A stretch of 64,000 nucleotides of DNA, from positions 352,001-416,000 of the forward strand of contig CBDCNQ010000002.1 of the NCBI GenBank assembly GCA_965219445.1, in the 5' to 3' direction. Source of the DNA: Longimicrobiales bacterium. Its GTDB lineage: Bacteria; Gemmatimonadota; Gemmatimonadetes; Longimicrobiales; Gaopeijiaceae. This document shows, piece by piece, positions 28,217 to 53,451 of this stretch. The notes below the pieces were generated by a model, which saw only the letters and a program-made list of their open reading frames with translations, ran no database searches and was not told the origin of the DNA. Position 1 is the stretch's first letter, and each line of letters opens with the position of its first letter. Both the position numbers and the translations under genes were made by a program.

Positions 28217-28290
<74 letters not shown>

Positions 28291-31058: not shown

Positions 31059-31341
31059 CTGAGTTCCACGGCTATGGGGCGATCGAAGCAGAAACCGGAT
31101 CGAAATTCTACTTCGCCGCGCCCTACCACGCTCTTGGGAAAGGGGGACCAGCGAGAACACGAACGGTCTGATTCGTCAGTACCTACCGAAGCGTACCAGC
31201 ATGGCTCACATCACCCAGCATGCTTGCAACCGCATCGCTCACAAACTCAACAACCGACCCAGGAAGCGTTTAGGCTATCGCACCCCCGAGGAATGCTATG
31301 TACAGATCTAGCTCGTGTTGCACTTCAAAGTTGATCCGAAG
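31059..31341 (+). mobile_element. IS30-family 3' fragment ending at a cassette start
   Basis: ENTNGLIRQYLPK..LNNRPRKRLG; end GTGTTGCACTTCAAAGTTGATCCGAAG. Confidence 0.85.
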
Positions 31342-31855
31342 CAGCAGCCTTACCACGCCCTCTACGGCGACGTTTGGTCTGTTCCGGCCGATTGCTCTGC
31401 GGCGAGACAACGACATCGACATCACGCCCAAGAAGGTGGAGCAAGGCCAGCATCTGACCCACAGACTTCTTGGAATAGGTCGAATCCAGAAGGCGGTAGA
31501 ACTGGCTCGCAGAGGTTCCAAGGCGACGAATGAGTTCTCGCTTACTCAAGTCGGTGGACTCCACGGCCTTCTGCGCTTCCAACGTCAAGCGGTGAAGCAG
31601 GAGGTCGTTCAGATAACCCGGATCTTGATTGTACTCGAGTACGGCGTCGAGGTGGACGGTGTCCTCGCCCCCCTTGGCAAGACGATACGTGAAGCCCTCC
31701 TTGCCCAGGTCTTCATCCGGAAAAGCTTCGGTGATCCGATTCTTGGGATCCGGTTGTAGCCGGAGGAGTGCATAGGGGAAGGTGTAGGCGCCTGTACGAG
31801 TCTCGATTTCGAACGCCTTCTTACGGTTGTTTGCCCTCACGCTTTCGATCTTCAC
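31325..31855 (-). CDS. HTH antitoxin-like protein (reverse-oriented cassette gene)
   Basis: LSKRELIRRLGTSASQFYRLLD; coupled to the DUF4160-like gene. Confidence 0.65.
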   Translation of the reverse strand: MKIESVRANNRKKAFEIETRTGAYTFPYALLRLQPDPKNRITEAFPDEDLGKEGFTYRLAKGGEDTVHLDAVLEYNQDPGYLNDLLLHRLTLEAQKAVESTDLSKRELIRRLGTSASQFYRLLDSTYSKKSVGQMLALLHLLGRDVDVVVSPQSNRPEQTKRRRRGRGKAAASDQL

Positions 31856-32046
31856 AGCAACCCTTCCTCGCTCAGTTCCGTGATCAGACGCAGGATCCGA
31901 TTCGTAGGCCTGCCTTTCATCGGCGCGTGGTTCTCAAGGTCCCATTTGAGAACGAGGGTGCCGTCGCGATAGACGTGAACGTGGTGGGGGCTATGGTCAC
32001 CTTTCCAAGTCACGAATACGAAGCCGCCTCGTCGGATCTTGCCCAT
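31852..32046 (-). CDS. DUF4160-like putative toxin
   Basis: DHSPHHVHV motif; own promoter TTGCTT-17-TAGCAT just upstream of ATG. Confidence 0.65.
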   Translation of the reverse strand: MGKIRRGGFVFVTWKGDHSPHHVHVYRDGTLVLKWDLENHAPMKGRPTNRILRLITELSEEGLL

Positions 32047-32106
32047 GTGATATGCTACCACCTACGGTAACACTAAGCAAGATTGCCTCGCACGTTGGGG
32101 GCTGCT

Positions 32107-32201
32107 GTATAACGGATCTGCGATTCTGCTGCGCGGCTAATGTGGTGACCGCAAGCGAAGCGCGCGAGCCTGATGTCTACCGCGACTGCAGCAATCGCTT
32201 G
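32107..32201 (+). repeat. attC site interrupted by IS110 at the crossover
   Basis: R'' GTATAAC, arms GCGATTCTGCTG/CAGCAATCGC, then IS110 left end. Confidence 0.85.
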
Positions 32202-33411
32202 ATACTCATGCAGGCCCCCTCCTGGACCTCTCAGAGAGAGGACGGAATGATCAGAGCGCGACGCTCGATCCATCCAACCCAGGAGGGGAACCATGCGCTT
32301 CTACACCGGCCAGCATCGATACTACTGTGGCATCGACCTTCACGCTCGCACGCTCTACCTCTGTATCCTGGACTGCCAGGGCAAGATACGACTACACAAG
32401 AGGCTACGCTGTGAGCGCGAGGCACTGCTTCGCGCCCTCGAGCCGTACCGTTCAGATCTCGTCGTGGGCAGCGAGTGCATCTTCTGCTGGTACTGGCTCG
32501 CCGATCTCTGTGCTCGCGAGCAGATCCCCTTCGTGCTCGGCCATGCGCTCTACATGAAGGCGATCCATGGGGCCAAGGCGAAGAACGACCACATCGACTC
32601 CCACAAGACGGCGGTGCTGCTGCGCGGGGGTGCCTTTCCGGTGGCCTACGTCTATCCCCCGCAGATGCGAGCCACGCGCGATGTGCTCCGGCGCCGACTC
32701 TACTTCGTACGCAAGCGCGGCGAACTCCTCGCCCACGTCCGTAACACCTTTCATCAGTACAACCTGCCTCGGCCCTCCGGTCAGCTCCTCTATAAGAAGA
32801 ACCGCGAGGGACTGGCCCAGGCATTCGACGATCGCATGATCCAGAGGACCATCGAGGCGGATCTCGCACTCGCGGATCGCTTCGACCCCGTGATCCGAGA
32901 ACTCGAGCGCACGATCGAAGAAGAAGCCCGCGTCCACGACCACGACACGCTGCAGCGGCTGCGAACCATCCCCGGCATTGGCCGCATCCGGGACAGCGCT
33001 TTCAGGGACCCGCTATGCGCCGCCTTGCGCCATGTCGTCAGGTGCGACGAGTACAAGCCCTCCCGCCGTAGGAGTCGGCCAACCTCTCCGGGCTCCGTGC
33101 ACCGGTCCGCTTCTTCGACGATCCGCAGCTTGTACGACGGAGCGAACCGCCGGCGCAGCGGCCTATCTACCACCTCCGAGTCCGCAGGAGCTGCCGCGCT
33201 TCGCTTACCGTCCCAGGTTGGTGGGGCTATTCCATTCTCTTTCATTCTCTCTCGGTGTCTCAGCATCCTCGGTTTCTCTGCCTTCGCCCTACTCTAATTC
33301 CTTAGCTGCTCCGTGTCTCACGTAAGTTGGCAGAGAGGGCTCCGCTTACGGCGCCGCTCCGCGGCGCGGAGGAGGGAACTTGCGCGCTCTTGACTCCGGG
33401 GGCCTGATAAG
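32202..33411 (+). mobile_element. IS110 (attC-targeting) copy, internally replaced by IS3 fragment 32989-33339
   Basis: Left end ATACTCATGCAGGCCCCC, tnp 5' part, right end ...GGGGGCCTGATAAG. Confidence 0.85.
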
Positions 33412-33458
33412 TGTTAGAGCGCTTGCCCTCGATGGTTATACCATGGTATTATAACGGT

Positions 33459-33695
33459 ATGAAAACAGCGATATCACTACCAGATGACCTCTTTGAGTCT
33501 GCCGACGCCCTCGCCGAGCGGTTAGGGTTGTCCCGAAGCGAGCTCTACGCAACGGCCGTTGCGGAGTACCTAGCCAAACACCGTGATGAGGATGTGACAG
33601 GCAGACTGAACGATGTCTTCGCCGACGAACCCAGCGGTATCGAGCCGGCGTTAAGGGCAGCCCAGGCACGAAGTGTGAGTTCGGCTGAGTGGTAG
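33459..33695 (+). CDS. CopG/RHH antitoxin
   Basis: MKTAISLPDDLF..A..LGLSRSELY; palindromic operator overlapping -10. Confidence 0.8.
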   Translation: MKTAISLPDDLFESADALAERLGLSRSELYATAVAEYLAKHRDEDVTGRLNDVFADEPSGIEPALRAAQARSVSSAEW

Positions 33696-34033
33696 TACAA
33701 CGTCGTGAGGTGTGGTGGGCCGATCTCGAGGAGCCTCGCGGATCTGAGCCCGGCTTTCGCCGCCCGATCCTCGTCGTCCAAGCCGACTCCTTCAATCGCA
33801 GCAGACTGCGGACAGTGCTCGGAGTAGTACTGACGTCGAACACGCGGCTCCTTGACGCCCCTGGCAACGTCCTTCTCCCGGCCCGGAATAGCGGCCTGCC
33901 CAAAGACTCGGTGGCCAACGTCACGCAGATCGTGACCCTTGATGAGGCCTACCTGTCGGAGCGAACGGGGCGCTTACCCCCTAAGCTGATGGCCCATGTC
34001 GATGCGGGTCTGAAGCTAGTCCTTGATCTATAG
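33689..34033 (+). CDS. PemK/MazF family toxin
   Basis: VWWADL.EPRGSEPG.RRP.LVVQ.D.FN, DSVANV.QI. Confidence 0.9.
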   Translation: MVVQRREVWWADLEEPRGSEPGFRRPILVVQADSFNRSRLRTVLGVVLTSNTRLLDAPGNVLLPARNSGLPKDSVANVTQIVTLDEAYLSERTGRLPPKLMAHVDAGLKLVLDL

Positions 34034-34045
34034 CCCGACCAAGCG

Positions 34046-34140
34046 CTCTAACGGATCTGCGATTCTGCTGCGCGAACAAGATGCCGACCGCAAGCGAAGC
34101 GCGCGAGCCTCAAGTCTACCGCGACAGTAGCAATCGCTTG
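34046..34140 (+). repeat. attC of the MazEF-like cassette (33413-34140), IS110-interrupted
   Basis: CAAGCGCTCTAAC is the exact complement of cassette start GTTAGAGCGCTTG. Confidence 0.9.
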
Positions 34141-34255
34141 ATACTCATGCAGGCCCCCTCCTGGACCTCTCAGAGAGAGGACGGAATGATCAGAGCGCGA
34201 CGCTCGATCCATCCAACCCAGGAGGGGAACCATGCGCTTCTACACCGGCCAGCAT
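34141..34255 (+). mobile_element. IS110 left-end fragment
   Basis: Matches the left end at 32202. Confidence 0.9.
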
Positions 34256-35312
34256 CCCTCTCTCATGAAGGCGACCCAGGAGCTAGCCAAGCACGTAGGG
34301 GTGAAGCCCGCGTGCGATGCGCTCAGGGTGCCGCGAGCCACGTTCTACCGTCGTCGGAGTGCATCGACCGGGCATCAGCAGCCCCGCCCGACCCCCGCCC
34401 GGGCCTTAAGTGAGAGGGAGCGGGACAAGATTTTCGACACCCTGTGTTCGGAGCGGTTCGTGGACCGGTCCCCAGCCGAGGTGGTGGCGACGCTGCTCGA
34501 CGAGGACGTCTACCTGTGCAGCGAGCGTACGATGTATCGCGTTCTGGCTTCCCAGGTGCCGGTTCAGGAGCGTCGAGCGCAGCGGAGTCATCCCAAATAC
34601 CAGAAGCCCGAGTTGATGGCGAGGGGCCCGAACCAGGTCTGGTCCTGGGATATCACCCGGCTGCTGGGGCCGAAGAAGTGGAGTTACTTCTACCTCTACG
34701 TGATCCTGGACATCTTCAGCCGCTACGTCGTGGGATGGATGGTGGCGGATCGGGAGAACTCTGCCCTGGCCAGCCGGCTGATCCAGCAGAGTTGCTTGAA
34801 GCATGGCGTCCAGCCCCACCTCCTGACCCTGCATTCCGATCGAGGGGCTCCGATGACGAGCCAATGCACGGCTCAACTACTCGCCGATCTCGGCGTGACC
34901 CGCTCGTTGGGCCGACCCCAGGTCTCGGATGACAATCCGTTCTCCGAGGCTCAGTTCAAGACCTTGAAGTACCATCCCTCGTTTCCCGGCCGGTTCGGGG
35001 ATCAGGGGCAAGCCAAGACCTTCTGTCGCTCGTTCTTCCGTTGGTATAATGCCGAGCACCGCCATGGCGGCATCTCGATGCTGACCCCCGAACAGGTCCA
35101 CTTCGGTCACGCCGATCGGATCATCGCCTGCAGGAAGGCCGTGCTCCGTGAGGCATGGGCCGCTCATCCCGAGCGCTTCGTCTCCGGTGAGCCGAAGCCT
35201 AAACCACTCCCGGAGGCCGTCTGGATCAATCCTCCCACCCCATCCCTCACGACACAGGAGATTGCTCTCTAATTGATTTCCAAGAGTGTCTCACTGGCGT
35301 TGACAGGTTCCG
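34256..35312 (+). mobile_element. IS3 derivative lacking orfA; orfB fused in frame to the IS110 start codon (34232-35272)
   Basis: Left tip CCCTCTCT joined to CATGAAG; intact right end. Confidence 0.85.
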
Positions 35313-35766
35313 GTTCCGTACCAGCTCCGACAAGCACTGCGTCCTCACCTTCGTCGATCGTAAGACGGGCTACGTGATGATCGGCAAGCTCGAGGCTCGT
35401 ACCGTCGAGGCTACGAACCGTCGAGCCGTTCGTCTGATCAAGACTGCCGCTCGCCCCACTCACACCATCACGGCCGACAACGGAACTGAGTTCCACGGCT
35501 ATGGGGCGATCGAAGCAGAAACCGGATCGAAATTCTACTTCGCCGCGCCCTACCACTCTTGGGAAAGGGGGACCAGCGAGAACACGAACGGTCTGATTCG
35601 TCAGTACCTACCGAAGCGTACCAGCATGGCTCACATCACCCAGCATGCTTGCAACCGCATCGCTCACAAACTCAACAACCGACCCAGGAAGCGTTTAGGC
35701 TATCGCACCCCCGAGGAATGCTATGTACAGATCTAGCTCGTGTTGCACTTCAAAGTTGATCCGAAG
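35313..35766 (+). mobile_element. IS30-family 3' fragment ending at a cassette start
   Basis: ITADNGTEF, PYHSWERGTSENTNG; same right end as 31341. Confidence 0.88.
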
Positions 35767-35836
35767 TAGCCCTTCCCTCCAGGCTCGGGATTCAGTATAC
35801 GTATAGTACGTTTTGAAACATACGTAGGAAGGACCC

Positions 35837-36067
35837 ATGGCAAAGACCAAGCTCACGCTGTCAGTTGACAAGGCTCTGATTGTGCGAGCTAAACGGTTCT
35901 CGCGGAGGAACGACACCACAGTCTCGGAGTTGGTCTCAAGGTTCTTGGCGTCGCTGGACGATGAGCGAGGTCGGGCGGCGCCTATCACATCGCGTCTACG
36001 TGGAGTCCTCCCTGCTGCCGTCAAACGCGAGGAACATCGGCGGCATCTTGAAGTGAAGCACGGGTGA
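35837..36067 (+). CDS. DUF6364-like RHH antitoxin
   Basis: KTKLTLSVD..LI.RAK..S.....VSELV; coupled to the PIN gene. Confidence 0.75.
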   Translation: MAKTKLTLSVDKALIVRAKRFSRRNDTTVSELVSRFLASLDDERGRAAPITSRLRGVLPAAVKREEHRRHLEVKHG

Positions 36068-36480
36068 AACGGATTCTTCTCGACATCAACGTGGTTCTCG
36101 ACATCTTAGCCGACCGGAAACCCTTCGCTGAGGAGGCTGCCGCGCTCTTCGGAGTGATCGAAACCGGAGGCGTGCAAGGCTTCGTCGCGGCCCATACGGT
36201 GACCACGCTTCACTATCTCCTGGCGAAGCACCTGGGGAAGGCGAGGACACGACGGGTGCTGATGGACCTGCTTCAGTTGCTCCGAGTGGTGGAGGTAGAC
36301 GAGGATCGTTTGCGGCATGCACTGGGGCTGAACTGGACGGACTTCGAGGACGCGGTTCAGGCAGCGTGCGCGGAGAAGGCTGAGGCAGACTACCTCGTGA
36401 CCCGGGACAAGGCCGGGTTCAAGAAGTCTTCAGTACGACCAGTAACGCCAAGCGAGTTGCTTGCTTTGATCCAGGAGTAG
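36064..36480 (+). CDS. PIN domain toxin
   Basis: LLDINVVLD, DFEDAVQ, LVTRD. Confidence 0.88.
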   Translation: MKRILLDINVVLDILADRKPFAEEAAALFGVIETGGVQGFVAAHTVTTLHYLLAKHLGKARTRRVLMDLLQLLRVVEVDEDRLRHALGLNWTDFEDAVQAACAEKAEADYLVTRDKAGFKKSSVRPVTPSELLALIQE

Positions 36481-36493
36481 ATGGATCGGGGCT

Positions 36494-36593
36494 ACCTAAC
36501 GGATCTGCATTTCTGCTGCGCGTCAATCTGCACTCCGCGCACATTGTGCGCGACTCTAACGCCGACCGCGACTGCAGCAAATGCTTGTTAGAA
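36494..36593 (+). repeat. Intact attC site (100 bp)
   Basis: R'' ACCTAAC, arms GCATTTCTGCTG/CAGCAAATGC, R' GTTAGAA. Confidence 0.9.
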
Positions 36594-36657
36594 CGCGCTG
36601 CGGCGGCACTCATCAGCCTCCGTAGTGAGTCAGACGCAGGGGGCTGGCCAGGCGCGA

Positions 36658-37755: not shown

Positions 37756-37790
37756 GGTTCTGCCTCTCCTGTTCTGAACCTCTTGGCGCG

Positions 37791-37885
37791 TTCTAACGTC
37801 TCTGCGATTCTGCTGCGCGGCTAATGTGGTGACCGCACGCGAAGCGCGCGAGCCTGATGTCTACCGCGACAGTAGCAATCGCTTG
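37791..37885 (+). repeat. attC site, IS110-interrupted
   Basis: R'' TTCTAAC ... AATCGCTTG; its R' GTTAGAG is displaced to 41049. Confidence 0.9.
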
Positions 37886-37975
37886 ATACTCATGCAGGCC
37901 CCCTCCTGGACCTCTCAGAGAGAGGACGGAATGATCAGAGCGCGACGCTCGATCCATCCAACCCAGGAGGGGAAC

Positions 37976-39542
37976 CGGAACCTGTCAACGCCAGTGAGAC
38001 ACTCTTGGAAATCAATTAGAGAGCAATCTCCTGTGTCGTGAGGGATGGGGTGGGAGGATTGATCCAGACGGCCTCCGGGAGTGGTTTAGGCTTCGGCTCA
38101 CCGGAGACGAAGCGCTCGGGATGAGCGGCCCATGCCTCACGGAGCACGGCCTTCCTGCAGGCGATGATCCGATCGGCGTGACCGAAGTGGACCTGTTCGG
38201 GGGTCAGCATCGAGATGCCGCCATGGCGGTGCTCGGCATTATACCAACGGAAGAACGAGCGACAGAAGGTCTTGGCTTGCCCCTGATCCCCGAACCGGCC
38301 GGGAAACGAGGGATGGTACTTCAAGGTCTTGAACTGAGCCTCGGAGAACGGATTGTCATCCGAGACCTGGGGTCGGCCCAACGAGCGGGTCACGCCGAGA
38401 TCGGCGAGTAGTTGAGCCGTGCATTGGCTCGTCATCGGAGCCCCTCGATCGGAATGCAGGGTCAGGAGGTGGGGCTGGACGCCATGCTTCAAGCAACTCT
38501 GCTGGATCAGCCGGCTGGCCAGGGCAGAGTTCTCCCGATCCGCCACCATCCATCCCACGACGTAGCGGCTGAAGATGTCCAGGATCACGTAGAGGTAGAA
38601 GTAACTCCACTTCTTCGGCCCCAGCAGCCGGGTGATATCCCAGGACCAGACCTGGTTCGGGCCCCTCGCCATCAACTCGGGCTTCTGGTATTTGGGATGA
38701 CTCCGCTGCGCTCGACGCTCCTGAACCGGCACCTGGGAAGCCAGAACGCGATACATCGTACGCTCGCTGCACAGGTAGACGTCCTCGTCGAGCAGCGTCG
38801 CCACCACCTCGGCTGGGGACCGGTCCACGAACCGCTCCGAACACAGGGTGTCGAAAATCTTGTCCCGCTCCCTCTCACTTAAGGCCCGGGCGGGGGTCGG
38901 GCGGGGCTGCTGATGCCCGGTCGATGCACTCCGACGACGGTAGAACGTGGCTCGCGGCACCCTGAGCGCATCGCACGCGGGCTTCACCCCTACGTGCTTG
39001 GCTAGCTCCTGGGTCGCCTTCATGAGTTCGTCCCGTCCTCGAGGCTCAATCCCAGCAGCCCTGCAACTTTTCCCTGGACGTCGATGATCAAGTGCGCCTT
39101 CTGGAGCTCCTTCTCGAGGCGAGTGTTCTCGCGCTCCAGCTTGCGCACCTTCTCCTCCAGCGGATTGCGCTCGCGCTTACGGCCTCGTTTCTTCGACAGC
39201 GCTTTCAGGGACCCGCTATGCGCCGCCTTGCGCCATGTCGTCAGGTGCGACGAGTACAAGCCCTCCCGCCGTAGGAGTCGGCCAACCTCTCCGGGCTCCG
39301 TGCACCGGTCCGCTTCTTCGACGATCCGCAGCTTGTACGACGGAGCGAACCGCCGGCGCAGCGGCCTATCTACCACCTCCGAGTCCGCAGGAGCTGCCGC
39401 GCTTCGCTTACCGTCCCAGGTTGGTGGGGCTATTCCATTCTCTTTCATTCTCTCTCGGTGTCTCAGCATCCTCGGTTTCTCTGCCTTCGCCCTACTCTAA
39501 TTCCTTAGCTGCTCCGTGTCTCACGTAAGTTGGCAGAGAGGG
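37976..39542 (-). mobile_element. IS3-family element, 1567 bp, 3-bp TSD AAC
   Basis: Matches 29492-31058; empty site known from other IS110 copies. Confidence 0.93.
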
Positions 39543-39546
39543 AACC

Positions 39547-40593: not shown

Positions 40594-41020
40594 CGGGGAG
40601 GGGAGGTTGTGAGCCTTGATTTCTAACTCGAGCGGGCACCGGATGCCTGACAGCCGCCTCGCTTGATTGGACGCCTCCTCCCGCTCCCCACACATCGAGT
40701 CGGTCTCACTCAGGACTCTGCCCCTCACCCGAGCCCGGAGCTAACTGGCCCGCCGCCTCACGGCCCGAGCCTGCTCTCCTTGAATGGAGTCGGACGGCAC
40801 GAGGGCACAGATGAATTTCTAGGTCGTAGCGGCCAGCAGGCTCCTGCTCCGCCGCCTTCGAGCTCGCCTCGAGGGAGATCCGGCGGTTAAACCTCGATAA
40901 GTGTTTGGTGCAGAGCTCACTGCGCTCGCACCTGCTAACGGAAACCAAGTCAGAGGACTCAGCGACCGATGCTCACTCCGCTTACGGCGCCGCTCCGCAG
41001 CGCGGAGGAGGGAACTTGCG
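40594..41020 (+). ncRNA. Predicted bridge/seek RNA of the attC-targeting IS1111
   Basis: Stem-flanked TTCTAAC (40621) and TCGCTTG (40659) match the target halves; GATAAGTG (40896) matches the donor end. Confidence 0.72.
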
Positions 41021-41088
41021 CGCTCTTGACTCCGGGGGCCTGATAAGTGTTAGAGCGCAGCCGACCGAGCCCGAAGTACCCTACGCCA

Positions 41089-41117
41089 TTGACGGATATA
41101 CGCCAATGACGTATCAT
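41089..41117 (+). promoter_or_regulatory. Sigma-70 promoter of the TA cassette
   Basis: TTGACG-17-TATCAT with overlapping imperfect palindrome; ATG 5 nt downstream. Confidence 0.65.
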
Positions 41118-41122
41118 AGCTC

Positions 41123-41724: not shown

Positions 41725-41755
41725 CCGGGCCAAAGCACGAGATCGCTTACCTGCG

Positions 41756-41850: not shown

Positions 41851-42724
41851 ATACTCATGCAGGCCCCCTCCTGGACCTCTCAGAGAGAGGACGGAATGAT
41901 CAGAGCGCGACGCTCGATCCATCCAACCCAGGAGGGGAACCATGCGCTTCTACACCGGCCAGCATCGATACTACTGTGGCATCGACCTTCACGCTCGCAC
42001 GCTCTACCTCTGTATCCTGGACTGCCAGGGCAAGATACGACTACACAAGAGGCTACGCTGTGAGCGCGAGGCACTGCTTCGCGCCCTCGAGCCGTACCGT
42101 TCAGATCTCGTCGTGGGCAGCGAGTGCATCTTCTGCTGGTACTGGCTCGCCGATCTCTGTGCTCGCGAGCAGATCCCCTTCGTGCTCGGCCATGCGCTCT
42201 ACATGAAGGCGATCCATGGGGCCAAGGCGAAGAACGACCACATCGACTCCCACAAGACGGCGGTGCTGCTGCGCGGGGGTGCCTTTCCGGTGGCCTACGT
42301 CTATCCCCCGCAGATGCGAGCCACGCGCGATGTGCTCCGGCGCCGACTCTACTTCGTACGCAAGCGCGGCGAACTCCTCGCCCACGTCCGTAACACCTTT
42401 CATCAGTACAACCTGCCTCGGCCCTCCGGTCAGCTCCTCTATAAGAAGAACCGCGAGGGACTGGCCCAGGCATTCGACGATCGCATGATCCAGAGGACCA
42501 TCGAGGCGGATCTCGCACTCGCGGATCGCTTCGACCCCGTGATCCGAGAACTCGAGCGCACGATCGAAGAAGAAGCCCGCGTCCACGACCACGACACGCT
42601 GCAGCGGCTGCGAACCATCCCCGGCATTGGCCGCATCCTGGCCCTCACGCTGCTCTATGAGATCCACGACATCGCTCGCTTCAGCACGGTGCAGCGCTTC
42701 AGCTCCTACTGTCGACTCGCCAAG
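41851..42724 (+). mobile_element. IS110 copy truncated by IS3 insertions
   Basis: Same left end and tnp up to YCRLAK. Confidence 0.9.
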
Positions 42725-44324
42725 CGGAACCTGTCAACAGCGATGAGACACGGGGAGTCATAGATTAGTGAGCAGGCTGCGGTGTCGGAGCCGCAGCTGG
42801 TGGATTGATCCAGACCTCCGTTGGGAGAGGCTGGGGCGTGGGGATTCCCTGCACGAAGCGTTCAGGGTGTTCGGACCACGCCTGCTGGAGAGTGCGCTCA
42901 CGCTGGGCGAGCACGTCACGGGCTCGGTCGTGATGGACATCAGCCGGGGTGAGCATCGCGATTCCGCCGTGGCGATGCTCATGGTTGTACCAAGGGAAGA
43001 AGGATCGGCAGAAGTCGATCGCCGCGCCGATGTCGGCGAAGCGTCCGGGGAAGTTGGGGTAGTATTTGACGGTCTTGAAGTGCGCCTCCGAGAAGGGGTT
43101 GTCGTCGCTGACCCGGGGACGGCCGAGCGAGCGGGTGATCCCGAGGTCGGCGAGCAGCTGGGCCGTGCACTTGCTGGTCATCGGGGCCCCGCGGTCGGAG
43201 TGCAGGGTCAGCGTCTCGGGCTGGACATCCTGCTTGAGGCAGCTCTCCTGGATGAGCCGGCAGGCGAGCGCGGAGTTCTCGCGGTCGGCGACCATCCATC
43301 CGACCACGTACCGGCTGAAGATGTCGATGAGGACGTAGAGGTAGAAGTACGACCACTTCTCGGGTCCGAGAAGCCGGGTGATGTCCCACGACCAGGTCTG
43401 GTTCGGTGCCGTGGCCACGAGCTGGGGCTTCGTGTAGGCGGGATGCGTGAGCTGACTGCGCCGCTCACGCACGGGGTGATCCTCCTGGAGGATCCTGTAC
43501 ATCGTGCGTTCTGAGCAGAGGTACTCGCCCTCGTCGAGGAGGGTGGCCACAACCTCTGCGGGAGATCGGTCGACGAAGCGCGGGCAAGCGAGGGTCTCAC
43601 GCACCTTCTCGCGCTCGGATTCATCGAGAGCCCGGGCGGGGCGCTGCCTGGGCTGCTGGTGCCCGGTCGTGGGCTTACGGCGCCGGTAGAACGTGGCACG
43701 CGCCACACCCAGTGCTCGGCACGCCGGCGCGGCGCCGACCTCCCGAGCCAGGGAGGCAGCGGCCATCAGGAGTTCTTTCCGCTGTCGAAGCTCAACCCCA
43801 GCAGCCCGGCAACTTTTCCCTGGACTTCCAGGATCGTTTCCGCCGTGGCAAGCTGCTTCTCGAGCCGGGCCACTTCGGCCTCGAGCTCATCCACCCTCTT
43901 CTGGAGGGAGTTGCGGCGGGCCGGCTTGCGGCCCCGCCGCTTCGGCGTCAGGCCCTTCAGAGAGCCCTCGCGCCGTGCCTTTCGCCATGCCGTGAGATGA
44001 GAGCTGTACAGACCCTCCCGACGCACGATCCGCCCAACCTCGCCGGGCTCCGAGCACCGGTCGGTCTCTTCCAGGATCCTGAGCTTGTACTCCGCGGTGA
44101 ACTGCCGGCGGGTCGGCTTGGCCACCACCTCCGGATCCCGAGCCCGATTCCGCTCGGCGACTCGGGCCCTGGCGGCCTCGTCGCTACGCTCCTCGCCCCC
44201 CAGGGCCCGAGCACCCACACCCATACCAATCATCGTATCTCTCCCCTCTACCATCGCCATCCACCTCCGCCCCCTTCAGTAATTCCAAAGGTGCCAGGTG
44301 TCTCACTGATATTGGCAGAGAGGG
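42725..44324 (-). mobile_element. Second, divergent IS3-family element (orfA 43766-44260, orfB 42765-43766), TSD AAG
   Basis: DDE motifs; ends CGGAACCTGTCAA and TTGGCAGAGAGGG. Confidence 0.92.
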
Positions 44325-44330
44325 AAGCCC

Positions 44331-45897
44331 CGGAACCTGTCAACGCCAGTGAGACACTCTTGGAAATCAATTAGAGAGCAATCTCCTGTGTCGTGAGGGA
44401 TGGGGTGGGAGGATTGATCCAGACGGCCTCCGGGAGTGGTTTAGGCTTCGGCTCACCGGAGACGAAGCGCTCGGGATGAGCGGCCCATGCCTCACGGAGC
44501 ACGGCCTTCCTGCAGGCGATGATCCGATCGGCGTGACCGAAGTGGACCTGTTCGGGGGTCAGCATCGAGATGCCGCCATGGCGGTGCTCGGCATTATACC
44601 AACGGAAGAACGAGCGACAGAAGGTCTTGGCTTGCCCCTGATCCCCGAACCGGCCGGGAAACGAGGGATGGTACTTCAAGGTCTTGAACTGAGCCTCGGA
44701 GAACGGATTGTCATCCGAGACCTGGGGTCGGCCCAACGAGCGGGTCACGCCGAGATCGGCGAGTAGTTGAGCCGTGCATTGGCTCGTCATCGGAGCCCCT
44801 CGATCGGAATGCAGGGTCAGGAGGTGGGGCTGGACGCCATGCTTCAAGCAACTCTGCTGGATCAGCCGGCTGGCCAGGGCAGAGTTCTCCCGATCCGCCA
44901 CCATCCATCCCACGACGTAGCGGCTGAAGATGTCCAGGATCACGTAGAGGTAGAAGTAACTCCACTTCTTCGGCCCCAGCAGCCGGGTGATATCCCAGGA
45001 CCAGACCTGGTTCGGGCCCCTCGCCATCAACTCGGGCTTCTGGTATTTGGGATGACTCCGCTGCGCTCGACGCTCCTGAACCGGCACCTGGGAAGCCAGA
45101 ACGCGATACATCGTACGCTCGCTGCACAGGTAGACGTCCTCGTCGAGCAGCGTCGCCACCACCTCGGCTGGGGACCGGTCCACGAACCGCTCCGAACACA
45201 GGGTGTCGAAAATCTTGTCCCGCTCCCTCTCACTTAAGGCCCGGGCGGGGGTCGGGCGGGGCTGCTGATGCCCGGTCGATGCACTCCGACGACGGTAGAA
45301 CGTGGCTCGCGGCACCCTGAGCGCATCGCACGCGGGCTTCACCCCTACGTGCTTGGCTAGCTCCTGGGTCGCCTTCATGAGTTCGTCCCGTCCTCGAGGC
45401 TCAATCCCAGCAGCCCTGCAACTTTTCCCTGGACGTCGATGATCAAGTGCGCCTTCTGGAGCTCCTTCTCGAGGCGAGTGTTCTCGCGCTCCAGCTTGCG
45501 CACCTTCTCCTCCAGCGGATTGCGCTCGCGCTTACGGCCTCGTTTCTTCGACAGCGCTTTCAGGGACCCGCTATGCGCCGCCTTGCGCCATGTCGTCAGG
45601 TGCGACGAGTACAAGCCCTCCCGCCGTAGGAGTCGGCCAACCTCTCCGGGCTCCGTGCACCGGTCCGCTTCTTCGACGATCCGCAGCTTGTACGACGGAG
45701 CGAACCGCCGGCGCAGCGGCCTATCTACCACCTCCGAGTCCGCAGGAGCTGCCGCGCTTCGCTTACCGTCCCAGGTTGGTGGGGCTATTCCATTCTCTTT
45801 CATTCTCTCTCGGTGTCTCAGCATCCTCGGTTTCTCTGCCTTCGCCCTACTCTAATTCCTTAGCTGCTCCGTGTCTCACGTAAGTTGGCAGAGAGGG
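44331..45897 (-). mobile_element. IS3-family element, 1567 bp
   Basis: Third full-length matching copy. Confidence 0.93.
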
Positions 45898-46349
45898 GTT
45901 TCAAGGTATGCAGCGAACTCCGGCGTAACGAACTCTTGGACATCCGGCCAAAGGCGCCACAGAGGGTGGTCTTCGCGGAACGTGCCCCACCCGAGGGATT
46001 CCAACGCCTCCGCATCGAGGAGTCCTTCCTCAACCTGTAGGAATGTCGTCTCGTAAAGCCGAAGAATCGCGACGAAGTAGTTCGTCACCAGGAGACGATC
46101 CGACGGGTCGAACTCAGACCATGACGCCGAGTCCGCCATGAGAACGCGCCCCCATGCATCACTCAAGTCGCGGTTGGTTGCCGCCGCCATCCAAAGTTCA
46201 GTCACCGCGATCCCGAGGTCCTGATAGGCCGCCGCCCGCGCGGCCACCGCGTTCTGTCGAAGTTCCATTCCGATGAAGACCAGCGACAGCACGACACCGA
46301 TGAGGGCTATCGCTTCAGCAATCACTCGAACAGGAGGTCTTGGCTTCAT
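45898..46349 (-). CDS. Hypothetical membrane-anchored protein, probable first cassette, 3'-truncated by IS3
   Basis: AEAIALIGVVLSLVFIGMELRQN; preceded by GTTAGAT. Confidence 0.6.
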
Positions 46350-46377
46350 CCGGGGCTAGCACTTTGTCTCGGTCGCG

Positions 46378-46400
46378 ATCTAACTTTCAACTGTATCGCG
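46378..46400 (-). other. Candidate attI downstream of intI
   Basis: Minus strand CAGTTGAAAG^TTAGAT resembles the attI core AAAG^TTRRRY, about 30 bp before an ORF. Confidence 0.45.
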
Positions 46401-46570
46401 AATCCTCTGGAGTTTCTGAAGCGGATCCGCTGCCTGGATGGCAACGTAGGAGAGATGGACAGGGCCCGACAGACCCAGCGCGGCCCTCGCTTGTGGCTTC
46501 TTTGCCTTTGGCTTTGGGCTGCGCCGGAGACGTTTTGGTCGCGTCGGATGGACGGTTGCCGGGTGGCAGC

Positions 46571-47566
46571 CTAGTCCCGGTCCTCCGGTCGATCAAGTGG
46601 GCTGCGCATGCCCAGTCCGGCATCGGTGATGGCTTGCACGTAGATCATCGTCGTGCGGATGTCTTTGTGACCCATGAGCCTCTGCACCGAACGGGCGTCG
46701 TATCCGGCCCGCAGCATCTGAGTAGCGAAGGATCTGCGAAGGGTGTGACAGGTGACGGGCTTGGTAATGCCGGATGCTCGGGCCGCGTCCTTCATCCGTC
46801 TTTGCATGGCTGTCGGGTTGAGGTGGTACCGACCCTTCCTCCTAGTAGCGGGATCCCGCGACCATCGGCTCGCGGGGAATAGGAACTGCCACGACAGGTC
46901 GTAACCCGCTTGTGGATCCTTGCGATCCAGTGCACCCGGCAGTTGAGCCCAACCGCCTCCTCGGCGCCTGTCCTCCCGGTGCAGTTCCTTTACAAGAGAC
47001 ACCTGGCGGCGTAGTGCCGAACCGAGCCGCTCGGGCAGCATGACCCACCGGTCCTTGGCACCCTTCCCGTCCCGTATGGCGATTTGCAGCAGGTCGAAGT
47101 CGATGTCCTTAATCCGCAGTTGATGACACTCCGTCAGGCGGGCGCCCGTGCCATACATCAGCGAACCCAGTAGTCGATATTTGCCGGACAGATGGCCGAG
47201 CACGAGCCGCACCTGCCCGTGAGATAACACGGTCGGTATTCGCTGCGGCTCTCGGGCCCGAGGCATACCTTCAAGATCGTCGCGGCCCAGGACCTCCCTG
47301 AAGAAAAACGACAGCGCCGACGCGGCCTGATTGCGACTCTTTGGCGCCAACCTCCGCTCCTCCGTGAGAACGCTCAAGAACTGCTCCACATGCCGTCTGG
47401 TGAGATCCTCCACCGGAACACCGGGATGGGCGTCCGTGAATCGCCGGAGCCATCGCGCGTACACTTCTATCGTCCTATTCCGGTAACCCCTCTGTCTCAG
47501 GAGGCGGCGAGTGGTCGCGAGCGCTCGCTCGACATCGGGTCCCGGGCGCATGCTGAACGATCCCAC
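46571..47566 (-). CDS. intI: Integron integrase
   Basis: NQA.SAL.FFF..VL, YGTGAR..E, GKGAKDR, IntI-specific insert LPGALDRK.P.A....WQFLFP, HTLR, GH.DIRTTMIY. Confidence 0.95.
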   Translation of the reverse strand: MGSFSMRPGPDVERALATTRRLLRQRGYRNRTIEVYARWLRRFTDAHPGVPVEDLTRRHVEQFLSVLTEERRLAPKSRNQAASALSFFFREVLGRDDLEGMPRAREPQRIPTVLSHGQVRLVLGHLSGKYRLLGSLMYGTGARLTECHQLRIKDIDFDLLQIAIRDGKGAKDRWVMLPERLGSALRRQVSLVKELHREDRRRGGGWAQLPGALDRKDPQAGYDLSWQFLFPASRWSRDPATRRKGRYHLNPTAMQRRMKDAARASGITKPVTCHTLRRSFATQMLRAGYDARSVQRLMGHKDIRTTMIYVQAITDAGLGMRSPLDRPEDRD

Positions 47567-47780
47567 CCGATCTGGAGCGAAGCCATGGACGTCTGGGACA
47601 GCAAAGCAGCGGACGCGTCACGGATGAACAGAAATCGGTTGGATTGCTCAGGCAGCGATAGCCAAGTCTGCGGGAGCCTAGGTAGTGGTACAGTTTGCTG
47701 TACCACTACCCGGCGTCGGGCAAAGTTGTCTTCCAGCCGGCTTCGCGGTACCATGAGCTACTTAGCCTCAGCAGGGAGCG

Positions 47781-48506
47781 GTGCCCATGTCCGAGAGCAA
47801 CCTCGTCGATGCAGGTCTTGCCATATCGAGTGCGAGCCCCTCCCCCCCCCACCCCGCGGGGTCACAGGACCCGACGTGCGGTCACTATTTCGGTGGCACG
47901 CCGTTCGGGTGGCAGGAGGGCCGGGGTAGTTGGTCCCGGAGGAACTTCATCAAGGGAATCATCGCGTCGGGGGTGGCAGTCTCTGGGGTGCCATATCTGG
48001 CCTCCGCTGCTTCCAGGCCGGCCATTCAGGCGGGTGCGGTAGAGCGCTTGATCTCGTTGAACGTCAACGGGCAGACCCGCCGCGTCGACGTGCTCCCCAA
48101 TGAGACGCTCGCGATGACCCTACGCTATAAGCTGGGGCTAACGGGTACCAAGCTCGGCTGCGACCGCGCAGAGTGCGGGGCGTGCACGGTGTTGATCGAC
48201 GACGTGACGCACTACTCGTGCTCCACGCTGACGCAGCGCGTTCGCGGGAAGGAGATCACGACGGTCGAGGGGTTGGAGAGTCCGACTGGAGAGCTACACC
48301 CGGTCCAACAGGCATTCATGGACGAGTTGGGCCCGCAGTGCGGCTTTTGCACGCCCGGCCAGGTGATGGCGGCCGTGGGTCTCTTGACGGCGAACCCGAA
48401 CCCGACTCGGGCCGAAGCGCGTCAGGCGATGTCAGGTAATCTGTGCCGATGCGGATCCTACGACCATTATCTGAACGGAATCATGCGTGCAGCAGGGGAG
48501 GTGTGA
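47781..48506 (+). CDS. (2Fe-2S) subunit of an aldehyde/xanthine dehydrogenase, Tat signal (PaoA-like)
   Basis: SRRNFIK; GCDRAECGAC; QCGFCTPG; NLCRC. Confidence 0.9.
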   Translation: MPMSESNLVDAGLAISSASPSPPHPAGSQDPTCGHYFGGTPFGWQEGRGSWSRRNFIKGIIASGVAVSGVPYLASAASRPAIQAGAVERLISLNVNGQTRRVDVLPNETLAMTLRYKLGLTGTKLGCDRAECGACTVLIDDVTHYSCSTLTQRVRGKEITTVEGLESPTGELHPVQQAFMDELGPQCGFCTPGQVMAAVGLLTANPNPTRAEARQAMSGNLCRCGSYDHYLNGIMRAAGEV

Positions 48507-48507
48507 C

Positions 48508-50934
48508 ATGGCATACTTGACTGGTCGAGATTTCACGCCACCGGATCTTCACGCCAAGGTGACCGGGCGGGCGAAATATGCCGAGGACTTTCGCGCGGAC
48601 GGCATGTTGTTCTGCCGGCTGCTGACCAGCCCCATGCCCCATGCGCGCGTCTTGAACATCGACGCGTCCGAGGCGCTCGCCATGGATGGCGTCGTCGCGA
48701 TTCTGACAGCCGACGAGCTGCCCGAAGTGGACGCGCCGGGCAATACGAGCCTCACGAATGAGCCACTCTACGTGGGCGCGCCGATCCTCGCGGTGGCTGC
48801 GACGGACGAGACCACGGCCCAGAACGCCATCGCGGCGATCAACGTGGATCTGGAACCGCTTCCGTTCTGCGTGGACCCGCTCGAGAGCCTGCGTCCTGGT
48901 GGGCCGAACGCCCGGACTACGGGAAACGTGCCGGGCGGGCGCGTGACCGCAGTGGAGCTCGATACGAGCGACGGCGTGGCGGAGGTCAAGTGGACGGCGG
49001 AGGACTTCGCGGCCGCAGGGGAGGGCCAGACGCCCATGGGCATGGCCACAACGGAATGGTCGTACGGCGATGTCGAGGCGGGCTTTGCAAACGCCGCGCT
49101 CGTGCTCGACGAGTCCTTCGTCACCGCGGGCACGTCGCATAACTCGATGGAGCCACGTACCGCCATGGCGTACTGGCAGAACGGGAAGTGTTACCTGTAC
49201 GGCTCGACCCAGAGCCAGAGCAACGTGGTTCCGCGTCTGGCCGCCCTCCTCGAGATCGAGCCGGAGGACCTCGTCTATGTCTCGGAGTTCTGTGGTGGTG
49301 GGTTCGGGTCGAAGGCGCCCGCCTACCCCGTTATAGCCATTCCGGCCTACATGGCGAAGAAGACCGGCCGGCCCGTGCTGATGCGTATCAGCCGAGCCGA
49401 GGAGAACTTCATCGGTGTATGCCGACCCGCTTTCCAGGGTCGCCTCAAGATCGGGTTCCAGCCCGACGGGCGTATCACGGCAGCCGATCTGTTCATCGTC
49501 CAGAACAACGGACCCAACTCCGGTGGGGGTGACTTTAACTCCGCCGGAGGCGCGATGTCCATCGTCTACACGCCGCTCGCCATGCGCTTCCGAGGGGTTC
49601 CCGTCCTGACCAACACACCACCCACGGGGGCCCAGAGGGGGCCGGGGCAGAACCAACTGGCCTGCGCTGTCGAACCGATTCTCGACAAGGCGGCCCGCCA
49701 GCTGGGTCTCGACCTTGTAGCGATTCGCCGGATCAATGCCCCGGACAACAGTGCCAGGTACGGTGCTGACCAGGGTCCTGTAACTAGCGCTTATCAACGT
49801 GAAGCGCTCGACATGGGCGCGGAGCAGTTCGACTGGGAAGCCAGGCGTGCGCGCAGTGGACAGCGGCGTGGCTCGAAGGTCACCGGCGTCGCGGTCGGCC
49901 AGGCGTACCACGCGGCCGGGAATAACGGATTCGACGGGCTCTTGCGCATCGCACCGGACGGAAAGTTGTACATCCACACCGGCGTGGGGAACCTGGGTAC
50001 GTATTCGTACGCCAACACGTCCCGGGTCGCGGCGGAGGTGCTCGGTTACGACTGGGAGAACGTTGAGATCGTCCGCGGTAACTCCAGCCGAAATCTTCCC
50101 TGGAGTCCGAATCAGGGCGGGAGCAACACATCCTTCACGGAGTCCCGCGCCAATTACGCCTCAGCCATGGACGCTGTCCAAAAGCTCAAAGAGCTCGCGG
50201 CGCGCGACCTCGGGGGCTCGCCCGGAGACTACGATATCGCAAACGAAGCGGTCTTCGCGAGAGCCAATCCGTCGCGGCGCCTTACCTACGCAGCCGCAGC
50301 TCAGAGGGCCATCCAACTCGGGGGACGGTTCAGCGGCGAAGAGGTGCCCGACGACATCAACGAGATGACGGCGCGCGCCGTGGAGGGGATCGCCGGTACA
50401 GGCTTGATCGGGGTGGCGCGGGATAATATGCCGAAAAACGGCACCGTTCCCGCCTTGGCGACCGGGTTCATCGAGATTGAGTTGGACGTGGAGACCGGCC
50501 AATTCGAGATCATCGACTACCTGGGCGTCGCAGACTGCGGAACGGTTATGCATCCCATGGGACTGTCGGGGCAGATCAAGGGTGGGGCCGTGATGGGCTT
50601 CGGGATGGCGGCCCTCGAGCGCCATATCTACGACACACACTACGGTCTGCCGGGGGCCGTCGGATTTCACCAGGCCAAGCCCCCGACGTATCTGGACGTT
50701 CCTGCCGAGATGTCGTGGAGCGCCGTGGACATAGCCGACCCCCAGAACCCGGTGGGTGCGAAGGGAATCGGTGAGCCAACCATGGGATGCGGCGCGGCCG
50801 CACTGTTGTGTGCGATCTCCGACGCTCTGGGAGGACACTACTTCAATCGATCGCCGATCGTGCCTGACATGATCGTAAATGCCGCCTCGGGGCAGGCACA
50901 ATCACACGGTCCGCTTCAGGTTAACACAGTATGA
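48508..50934 (+). CDS. Xanthine dehydrogenase family molybdopterin-binding subunit
   Basis: KVTGRAKY, GGGFGSK, RGPG, AKGIGEP. Confidence 0.92.
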   Translation: MAYLTGRDFTPPDLHAKVTGRAKYAEDFRADGMLFCRLLTSPMPHARVLNIDASEALAMDGVVAILTADELPEVDAPGNTSLTNEPLYVGAPILAVAATDETTAQNAIAAINVDLEPLPFCVDPLESLRPGGPNARTTGNVPGGRVTAVELDTSDGVAEVKWTAEDFAAAGEGQTPMGMATTEWSYGDVEAGFANAALVLDESFVTAGTSHNSMEPRTAMAYWQNGKCYLYGSTQSQSNVVPRLAALLEIEPEDLVYVSEFCGGGFGSKAPAYPVIAIPAYMAKKTGRPVLMRISRAEENFIGVCRPAFQGRLKIGFQPDGRITAADLFIVQNNGPNSGGGDFNSAGGAMSIVYTPLAMRFRGVPVLTNTPPTGAQRGPGQNQLACAVEPILDKAARQLGLDLVAIRRINAPDNSARYGADQGPVTSAYQREALDMGAEQFDWEARRARSGQRRGSKVTGVAVGQAYHAAGNNGFDGLLRIAPDGKLYIHTGVGNLGTYSYANTSRVAAEVLGYDWENVEIVRGNSSRNLPWSPNQGGSNTSFTESRANYASAMDAVQKLKELAARDLGGSPGDYDIANEAVFARANPSRRLTYAAAAQRAIQLGGRFSGEEVPDDINEMTARAVEGIAGTGLIGVARDNMPKNGTVPALATGFIEIELDVETGQFEIIDYLGVADCGTVMHPMGLSGQIKGGAVMGFGMAALERHIYDTHYGLPGAVGFHQAKPPTYLDVPAEMSWSAVDIADPQNPVGAKGIGEPTMGCGAAALLCAISDALGGHYFNRSPIVPDMIVNAASGQAQSHGPLQVNTV

Positions 50935-51011
50935 GGGAGCAGCCCCATGAGTGAGAACCCGCTGACAGGGCACCCGCTGACAGGCACCCGCATGTTGAAG
51001 GAGATCCGCGC

Positions 51012-52001
51012 ATGCTGAACGACATGATGCCGCACTTCGAGCTGTTCCAACCCGTCGATGTAGACAATGCATTCGAACTCCTGGATCGGTTCGGGGAGGA
51101 TTGCTGGACCATTGCCGGAGGACACGACAGTCTGGGCTGGTTCAAGGATCGGGGGAAACAGCCTTCGGCCGTAATCGACCTCGCGGGGATCGCCGAGCTT
51201 CATGGCATCCGAGAGTCGGCTGGGGGCCTCGAGCTGGGGGCAATGACTACCCTCACCGAAGTCGAGCGCCACCCTGTCATCCAAGAGAGATTCGGTTTGC
51301 TCGCGGAGGCGGCCCGCATGGTTGCGAGCCCCCAGATCCGTAACTCGGGCACCTTGGGTGGCAACGTCGTACAGGACACACGATGCTGGTACTACCGCTT
51401 CGGGCTCGCATGCTATCGAGCCGGCGGTAACACGTGCTACGCCAGCGCGCCGGAGGCCATGAATCGGGAGCACGCCATCTTCGGAGCCAACCGGTGCGTG
51501 GCCGTTACTCCGTCCGATCCCGCACCCGCCTTGGTGGCGCTCGAAGCGGAGATGGTGATTCGCAACTCCCGCGGTGAGCGGGTGGTGTCTGCGGAGGACT
51601 TCTTCATGACACCCGCCGTCGACATCCAACGCATGACGGTCCTCGAGCCCGAGGATCTGCTGACGACCATCCGCATTCCCAACACCTGGGCTGGAGCCAA
51701 CTTCTACTTCGAGAAGGTGGCGGACCGGGGTGCCTGGGACTTCCCGCTCGTGAACGTAGCCGCTGCGCTCCGGCTCGAGGGAGGCCGAATCGCCGACGCC
51801 CGCATCGTCGTGGGTGCCGTCGAGTGCATCCCTCGGCGCCTGACGGACGTCGAAGACCTCGTGAGGGGCCGTGTCAAGAACGAAGAGACCGCCGTCCTGG
51901 CGGGTGCGCTCGCGGTAGAGGGTGCGGAGCCCTTGCGGTACAATCACTTCAAGGTGCCGCTCATGGAGAACCTCGTGAAGAGGGCCGTGCGCGACGCCTG
52001 A
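51012..52001 (+). CDS. FAD-binding subunit with 4Fe-4S insert (PaoB-like)
   Basis: ASPQIRNSGTLGGN, RCWYYR..CY..GG..C, PSD. Confidence 0.9.
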   Translation: MLNDMMPHFELFQPVDVDNAFELLDRFGEDCWTIAGGHDSLGWFKDRGKQPSAVIDLAGIAELHGIRESAGGLELGAMTTLTEVERHPVIQERFGLLAEAARMVASPQIRNSGTLGGNVVQDTRCWYYRFGLACYRAGGNTCYASAPEAMNREHAIFGANRCVAVTPSDPAPALVALEAEMVIRNSRGERVVSAEDFFMTPAVDIQRMTVLEPEDLLTTIRIPNTWAGANFYFEKVADRGAWDFPLVNVAAALRLEGGRIADARIVVGAVECIPRRLTDVEDLVRGRVKNEETAVLAGALAVEGAEPLRYNHFKVPLMENLVKRAVRDA

Positions 52002-52678
52002 GGCCCTGCTACGCCGGGGGCTCCAGCTAGCTCGTCTCAGCCCCTGTGTTGATCGCGAGGTGTTCGCCCGCCCTCCCTGGCATCTTGCCCGAGAGATAGG
52101 GTCCCTGCCGGTTCTTGGCGGGTTGGGGAGACTTTCTCCCCTAGGTGTGGGTCCTCGGTAGGTCAGCAGTCTCAAAAGGCTCTCTTACGCGATTCCAAGG
52201 GGAGCGGAGGAGCCAACGTGCTCCGCGAAAACCCCGTGCGCCTCGCGGAGATTCCGAGAGCAACTCCGACTGAAGGGAGAATCGGCTCCTATGGAATTCT
52301 CGCGGCCAACGTCGTGGAGCTACGTCGTGGACCCCCCAAAACAAGGAAACTCCCTCAGAGCATCCAAAGCCCTGAGGGAGTAGACCTTATCCTCAGTCGG
52401 GACGGCCGGATTGAGCTCCGGGCGCCTTCGGCGATCATCGCTCGTCTCGCGGAGGTCATGAGGATCTATCGAGAGCGCTGCTGACGCTCGGCTCGAACCG
52501 GCGACCCCCTGAACCCCATTACACATAGGTTATACGCCATATCATGGGAGATGCCCAGTTTCATTCGGGTTTCGGAGAAAATTTCCTGGAGTCGGAATCC
52601 CCGTTTCCAGGCATCCAGGGGGGTTACGTAGTGGAGAAGGTATTGGAGTGCGCCTCTTCGGGGACTCAATCAACCTAG

Positions 52679-52708
52679 TCCGTGTTGCACTTCAAAGTTG
52701 ATCTGAGC
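52679..52708 (+). mobile_element. IS30-family right-end remnant (variant) at a cassette start
   Basis: CGTGTTGCACTTCAAAGTTGATCTGAGC versus CGTGTTGCACTTCAAAGTTGATCCGAAG. Confidence 0.75.
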
Positions 52709-52877
52709 CGGAATCTGCCGGACGGCTGACGGGCTAAGGCACGTCTGGAAGGGAACTATGACTCCCCCTGCTGAGGATAGCCAATTCCTGCGGCCGTTCG
52801 TGGCGCTGCATTCCAGCTTAATCTACGTTGGTAACTGAGGCTGACCGGGCACTCGAACGTTGAGACGAGGTAGGAAG

Positions 52878-53420: not shown

Positions 53421-53451
53421 CCGTCCTCAACCCACGCCGCCCACCGATTCC

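Follow-up and report, generated by a model that had tools for sequence, protein, structure and literature searches.

Preference of an IS30-family insertion sequence clade for the R'' end of integron attC sites

In the present study we have analysed an insertion sequence (IS) of the IS30 family that lies in a fragmented integron of a Longimicrobiales bacterium. The analysed stretch, hereafter the window, comprises 64,000 nucleotides (C2:352001-416000) of an assembly, G000, of 4.56 Mb in 5 contigs. The window holds three right ends of the element, each abutting a different gene cassette, and comparison with related loci makes it very probable that the preference of this clade for the R'' end of the integron attC site is real. 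We also lean towards the fuller proposal that the R'' end of attC would be its preferred target through a linear, one-sided read-out, a more guarded judgement which covers the whole statement, linear read-out included. Insertions of the element lie between a gene and the gene's own attC, antisense to the array, and the left end of the element faces attC; of the 3 bp duplicated, two precede R'' and the third is the base with which R'' begins, and attC is left complete. The targeting is a strong preference and not an absolute rule, because two full-length copies in G000 lie outside attC.

The three junctions, at 31341 (followed by CAGCAGCC), 35766 (TAGCCC) and 52708 (CGGAATC), lie where an initial annotation of this DNA had placed them, each preceded by a 26-nt terminal repeat starting TGTTGCACTTCAAAGTTGATC. 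Their flanks match the opposite end of their own cassette in a fixed register for 8, 6 and 7 nt, with a joint chance of about 4^-21 by our arithmetic. A genome-wide search shows that G000 holds six such right ends, namely the three in the window, those of the two full-length copies and one at C4:294405, a fourth junction in the same register with 6 of 7 nt matching. No left end of the element is present within the window: IS3-family copies truncate two of the IS30 fragments, and the remaining junction has a solo end of about 34 bp. The statement that insertion occurs at the same nucleotide each time holds as regards the register and is uncertain by one base at the third junction, where a 25-nt end minus one C, with the flank starting from 52708, fits about equally well, because the right ends of 19 of 22 close relatives finish AG and none GC. 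We infer that the three ends are remnants of IS30 insertions at R''; the first fragment occupies the position where the R'' of cassette 1 began.

Identical IS copies, oddly truncated, form a mosaic in the window, and many metagenome contigs of related loci carry no duplication, both of which would be expected if the junctions were assembly chimeras of a repeat-rich, metagenome-assembled region. Nevertheless, when public contigs of four runs were aligned to positions 31059-32290 only, contig 12 of run X19, which may be the source sample or a close one, spanned junction 31341 with 0 differences, and contigs of runs X1 and X21 carried the IS-free site, that is attC-G + TTATA + position 31342. For junction 1 this speaks against a chimera; as the same register recurs in complete Vibrio records and in six phyla, we regard chimeras as highly improbable. 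The empty site is the one that had been reconstructed in the initial annotation, and codon 172 of the antitoxin has its first base at position 31342, in agreement with the in-frame TAA that the reconstruction restores. After insertion the frame ends 4 residues later at a stop inside the right inverted repeat of the IS (window 31325-31345), and the antitoxin gene probably survives because the IS right end supplies this new in-frame stop.

The array has a minus-strand orientation, and the box that the IS30 element adjoins is R'', not R'. The integrase gene intI runs 47566->46571, with an attI-like site ahead of a minus-strand open reading frame (ORF, 46349->45876) that begins just after GAAAG/TTAGAT at 46384. 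Furthermore, the antitoxin stop codon falls within the reconstructed box, a gene stop codon inside R'' being a common trait; among 50 cassettes of related loci, 39 have a longest ORF that runs opposite to the IS, as do 32 of the 34 clear ones; and the Vibrio junctions precede Vibrio cholerae repeats (VCRs) in arrays annotated on the opposite strand. Extra-helical bases lie on the IS-adjacent arm of attC and an invariant AAC-G on the far arm, a placement that fits the marks given in parts of one study, where unpaired bases denote the R''-L'' arm and AAC-G the bottom-strand R' (PMC2727003). The hydrolase cassette 37755->36658 is bounded by complementary boxes, and a count of open frames ending at the box TAA was uninformative on orientation (18/101 on one side vs 13/54 on the other). 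The initial annotation placed the insertion in the R' core, on the downstream side of the IntI crossover, which would put the element, sense to the array, where the next cassette begins. The two R boxes are near-symmetric and four window cassettes have plus-strand genes, in favour of such a geometry, yet the bottom strand was taken there as top because the genes of those four cassettes are inverted (three toxin-antitoxin pairs and AlgH), and the intI/attI-like orientation, the stop in the box, the 32/34 cassettes, the unpaired bases and the VCR orientation all contradict it, leaving it with next to no probability. The insertions are independent events, as had been proposed on other grounds, because IntI exchange at R' cannot create new junctions at R''.

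The element is about 1.1 kb long and contains one ORF of 320 aa, encoding a helix-turn-helix and DDE transposase, and little else. The intact transposase of G007, a genome of the same genus, was used for the domain tests; it differs from the G000 copy at 2 positions, scores 283.2 bits against the NCBIfam IS30 model NF033563 (cut-off 80) and shows the domains HTH_38 at residues 3-46 and rve at 173-262, and no IS110-family match was found in the protein family scan. Its nearest matches in a sequence search carry the labels Longimicrobiales/Gemmatimonadota, and the nearest annotated proteins are ISVa6/ISVvu6 (RefSeq product names) at 57-58% identity. The terminal inverted repeats are imperfect, with 18/26 matching over 26 bp, the usual length in the IS30 family being about 20-30 bp, and the 3-bp duplication agrees with the short (2-3 bp) duplications of the family. 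A single-sequence structure prediction of the transposase gave a mean predicted local distance difference test score (pLDDT) of 35.9, too low for the model to be used. Compared with G007, the transposase gene of both full-length G000 copies has one inserted base. Solo right ends are frequent in relatives (L037-L039, L043-L049) and occur also at C4:294320-294405 of G000, many of them beginning near the transposase stop codon; left ends in G000 number only two, both in the full copies, a bias towards right ends.

The survey of relatives comprised the 80 top-ranking loci out of 483 in genomes and the 80 top-ranking out of at least 580 in metagenomes, at 56-100% identity; these 160 are closest matches and not a random sample, with five G007 copies among them and several loci from one genome. 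Left ends were found in 149 of them and right ends in 154. GTTRRR stands at -9..-4 of the left end in 82 of the 142 scorable left flanks (15 nt or longer), and in 0/142 at each of the six shifts of 1-3 bases. The base preferences are restricted to the left flank, the reverse motif being present on the right flank in 1/139. Both ends are available for 130 loci; 42 of these show a 3-bp duplication, where chance gives a mean of 9.2 and a maximum of 19, and none shows a 4-bp duplication. The duplicated bases are positions 7-9 of the bottom-strand GTTRRRYNN in intact copies, which corrects the earlier description of an insertion simply after base 6, and the left attC arm of full-length copies ends GTTRRR-NNN, in support of the suggestion made there of an IS30-family element that prefers attC.

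The flanks were further analysed as folded attC arms. With the upstream AAC included, 43 of 112 unique long flanks beat all 40 shuffles, and all 43 are among the 85 with GTT; this hairpin-shuffle test is conservative and missed sites that a covariance model found. The model was built from 22 related flanks and one window attC, 23 sites chosen for good folding, in which AAC and GTT are invariant, 84.5% of cells are paired and the attC arms covary (0/500 shuffles reach the observed score). A match to the model ends at the junction in 69 of 120 loci, these being the surveyed loci with a left flank long enough for scoring (68 matches at E<=0.05, one at 0.21). Matches to the model also recur at the distances expected of cassettes. 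The offset is identical in 66 of the 69, the match is found in 47/98 loci outside the training set, and all 69 score best in the bottom-strand orientation, R' being used in 0/69 cases. The right flank matches the far end of its own cassette in 15/99 loci, with a mean of 0.4 and a maximum of 4 for swapped flanks. Copies adjacent to attC are present in Gemmatimonadota, Verrucomicrobiota, Acidobacteriota, Pseudomonadota, Chloroflexota (a weak match) and Eiseniibacteriota. G007 has five identical copies within 60 kb, a stretch in which 14 attC matches fall on the plus strand; three of the copies directly follow an intact attC and two follow an attC split by an IS110-family element, in a compatible register. 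A second IS110-family element (487 aa) is located in loci L050 and L051 (165-1888), within R'' after GTTAG, between attC and the IS30 left end.

The nearest named elements behave in the same manner. On a Vibrio campbellii replicon 10 of 14 copies lie at the exact register by the VCR R'' arm, one is a base off and three lie elsewhere, with the duplication retained in 4 of the 14. All seven copies in a V. vulnificus array record are at the VCR register; three pairs share flanks, so that four are distinct. One V. alginolyticus copy follows the attC rule and one Photobacterium copy does not. At 41-42% identity, an attC arm or core was found beside 0/5 IS30 elements, in counts that leave out L212 and L219, whose ends were not identified. 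In a FastTree tree the Vibrio elements fall among the sampled relatives and attC use is spread through the sampled group, although four outgroup rows on long branches and the choice of rows by closeness to the query mean that this tree does not fix monophyly or the limits of the group. Locus L211 (NZ_CP016323.1), a 'plasmid' record, is a VCR cassette array with a terminal segment that looks duplicated, three of its IS copies repeating the flanks of three others.

With respect to the mechanism, parts of a published account describe copy-out-paste-in transposition of the IS30 family via a circle or a junction of inverted repeats, with staggered attack on double-stranded DNA (PMC9333248). By family knowledge the present element would likewise transpose by copy-out-paste-in through a circle. 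Flank statistics suggest that the transposase may read double-stranded DNA on one side only, over about 24 bp of the R''-spacer-L'' arm, and that a core TTGTTA[G/T]R together with a weaker distal block would fix register and orientation. The same one-sided read-out would account for the oriented insertions at degenerate sites outside attC. Both full-length G000 copies sit at such degenerate GTT cores, one within an MFS gene after GTAAGG, with the 3-bp duplication CCT, the other with unmatched flanks. Off-target sites keep G, T and T at -9/-8/-7 in 23, 27 and 24 of 39 rows, the two G000 rows being one base off register in these counts and excluded from the test of the distal block. They resemble the attC arm weakly at -27..-22 (p=6e-4) and -15..-10 (p=6e-4). 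Five off-target sites with an intact duplication are flanked on either side by 130-300 codons of open frame and another lies in the MFS gene, and for that reason they are not decayed attC. A 24-bp one-sided model, fitted to the stringency of the off-target sites, predicts 7-58% attC use (39-92% with selection), the observed value being 58% or more. The base before R' is C in 62/63 sites and R'' is preceded by TT or TG in 45/65, a difference that would explain why R' is unused. Two simpler cues were rejected. The 8-bp core alone under-predicts attC use, at 0.3-2.4% (2-17% with selection), with exact 8-mer counts low enough to leave some room, and likeness of the target to the element's own right end amounts to at most 10/26 matches with the attC arm at five registers.

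The same attC targeting might instead be cued by the core plus structure, such as an extruded cruciform or, at a replication fork, the folded bottom strand with its 3' foot; a host or IntI protein bound at the site might serve as well. Indeed, the site lies at the hairpin foot, at the same end and on the same strand as the sites of group IIC-attC introns and IS1111-attC elements in the portions of PMC3001079 that deal with them. Moreover, targeting persists across attC arms of very different sequence, and the low prediction for the core alone implies that more is needed. On the other hand, GTT-like cores within genes have received oriented insertions with 3-bp duplications, a linear 27-nt matrix ranks attC arms top of G000 with 0-1 other sites scoring equally, and a 3-bp duplication implies, from family knowledge, a double-stranded target; we consider a structural or protein cue rather unlikely, though deserving serious attention. 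Less probable still, by a good distance, is a short motif preference combined with selection against insertions elsewhere, by which copies would accumulate in dispensable arrays. Such arrays do gather many IS types here, 2/6 G000 right ends lie outside attC, and exact copies of the 8-mer are few: the Vibrio replicon has 315, compared with at least 69 VCR arms, and TGTTA[GT]R has 225 sites in G000. However, at the stringency that off-target sites show, the core predicts 2-17% attC use even with tolerance of only 12% of other sites, compared with the 58% or more observed, the harmless R' with the same GTTAG goes unused, which selection does not explain, and IS3 copies in the same array lack such a register.

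Several points weigh against the linear one-sided read-out, or against the preference itself. Unrelated flanks elsewhere, which the initial annotation had named as a case against targeting, are found in part: 51 of the 120 flanks have no attC match at the junction and the two full G000 copies lie apart from attC, set against the 69 at attC; of the 51, 12 still end GTTAG and two are the IS110-split sites. All five scored Latescibacterota copies lie outside attC, and in one G000 copy a GTT-type motif stands on the right. The middle block conserved in attC, -21..-16, gives no signal at off-target sites (p=0.38), and some of the 'off-targets' may be decayed attC that inflate the distal signal. Outside the core and AA at -17/-16, VCR arms and the GC-rich arms are different, and a long linear code would therefore need retuning per host. 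The prediction model is rough, with one background genome, 15-19 sites and weights learned from attC, and the evidence for targeting as a whole is sequence comparison. Finally, only 19 of 64 attC-adjacent copies retain the 3-bp duplication. Short-read assembly accounts for part of this loss; complete Vibrio records show it too, and because of this recombination between copies or one-ended deletion probably joins the gene of one cassette to the attC of another.

The element shares traits with three known systems. IS1655, of the IS30 family, targets neisserial dRS3 repeats with a 3-bp duplication, and the HTH_38 + rve architecture of the present transposase resembles that of ISAs2 and IS4351. 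Escherichia coli IS30 has in common with the present clade the IS30 transposase, the inverted repeats and a short duplication; it targets nearly palindromic hot spots or its own ends with a 2-bp duplication, according to sections of PMC9333248, whereas the preferences of the present clade are one-sided, with an attC R'' target that fixes orientation, a 3-bp duplication and no nearly palindromic hot spot. The IS1111-attC group (ISPa21, ISPst6, ISKpn4) inserts antisense to the array at a target close to the 5' (R'') end of attC, as stated in parts of two reports (PMC3001079, PMC11187229). The present clade does so too without being a member of that group: the DEDD transposase of IS1111-attC elements is guided by an RNA that a non-coding region supplies, in passages of the latter report (PMC11187229), and the element described here has a DDE enzyme, terminal repeats and a 3-bp duplication. 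Group IIC-attC introns such as S.ma.I2 insert on the bottom strand, antisense, and part a gene from its own attC, as outlined in portions of PMC3001079 and PMC8876359. The IS30 element shares with them the attC end, the strand and the separation of gene and attC; they consist of a ribozyme and a reverse transcriptase, without inverted repeats or a DDE transposase, and the 1.1-kb element, being one IS30 transposase ORF, does not belong to them, as judged without an RNA family scan.

The window also carries an IS110-family element, with left ends at 32202, 34141, 37886 and 41851 and right ends at about 33413 and 41049, which has subterminal repeats and a long downstream non-coding region (IS1111-like). 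It cuts attC inside R'', between G and TT of the bottom strand, a position that 8/8 left and 5/5 right ends in the genome fit, whereas the IS30 element leaves R'' whole. It is probably of the IS1111-attC type, competing with IS30 for the same box.

The integron region (Table 1) spans from a tRNA-Arg gene (28217-28291) to about 54 kb and is interrupted by IS3-family and IS110-family copies. The sole tblastn match to intI in the assembly at E<=1e-30 is the one in the window. This gene is directed towards its own array, with the attI-like site behind the intI stop codon (window 46340-47566), so that gene and array share one direction as in Treponema-type integrons, and locus L130 shows a comparable attI-like stretch. 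The IS3-family element is present as several identical copies and one 70%-identical relative (29492-31058, 34262-35313, 37975-39542, 42724-45897), inserted into and truncating other elements, and the array is strongly fragmented. The AlgH/DUF179 gene at 52860-53420 is inverted relative to the attC arms and belongs to a distinct attC cluster beyond intI. A tyrosine-recombinase-like region, broken as read by eye, extends over 26877-28291 and ends beside the tRNA-Arg gene, and 49 bp of the 3' part of that tRNA recur at 61240-61288; these two features suggest that 28.2-61.3 kb may be an integrated island. Among the best public metagenomes containing the stretch, the origins stated are marine sediment and marine.

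Table 1. Coordinates of IS30 remnants, cassettes, attC sites and neighbouring features in the window.
Feature	Position	Strand	Remarks
IS30 fragment 1, 3' part	31059..31341	+	transposase gene end with stop codon; right inverted repeat 31316-31341
Cassette 1, small toxin-antitoxin-like gene pair	31342..32112	-	sense to array; R' crossover 32113/32112
attC of preceding cassette	32107..32201	-	split at R'' AA/C by IS110-family (IS1111-like) element from 32202
IS30 fragment 2, 3' part	35314..35766	+	last 140 codons, right inverted repeat 35741-35766
Cassette 2, antitoxin and PIN gene	35767..36499	-	genes inverted relative to array; R' crossover 36500/36499; IS at R'' end
Intact attC	36494..36593	-	window plus strand is the bottom strand; closes hydrolase cassette 37755->36658
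Solo right end of variant IS30 element	52675..52708	+	repeat from 52683; last base uncertain by one
Cassette 3, AlgH-like gene	52709..53457	-	R' crossover 53458/53457; IS end at R'' end
IS3-family element	29492..31058	-	adjoins and truncates IS30 fragment 1
Same IS3-family element, partial copy	34262..35313	+	adjoins and truncates IS30 fragment 2
intI (integron integrase)	46571..47566	-	TIGR02249, 345.7 bits (cut-off 265)
attI-like region (putative attI)	46340..46470	-	GAAAG/TTAGAT crossover 46384/46383, past intI stop; sets array on minus strand

In the publications that we found, attC is sought by RNA-guided IS1111 elements and by group IIC introns. No description of IS30 at attC was found in the literature covered, a search that left subscription papers, ISfinder/TnPedia entries and supplements outside, and IS30 at attC is not mentioned in the available parts of PMC12444791, PMC8876359, PMC13548323, PMC3971601, PMC3898611 and PMC10916398. 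If the present proposal is true, a protein-only DDE transposase that finds the same attC end in one orientation and leaves the site intact would be a mechanistically different solution, and the clade offers a system for the study of how a DDE enzyme reads a one-sided target. As a consequence of its position the element would travel as cargo when IntI moves the cassette. Independently of IntI, copies recombining with each other, or a single end attacking another R'', would delete cassettes and join genes to foreign attC sites. We tentatively put forward, as an extension that we hold possible and less probable than not, a phylum-spanning IS30 clade acting as a dedicated integron parasite, with asymmetric DDE recognition of the R''-L'' arm, perhaps extruded, which would ride in cassettes with attC kept and provide a second, IntI-independent route of editing through precise cassette deletion, attC swapping and working hybrid cassettes. 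The frequent loss of the duplication, in complete records included, suggests such IntI-independent rearrangement of arrays. ISVa6 and ISVvu6 belong to the clade, which means that it already shapes well-studied chromosomal integrons, and its insertion beside an intact attC could serve as a tag for cassette arrays in environmental bacteria.

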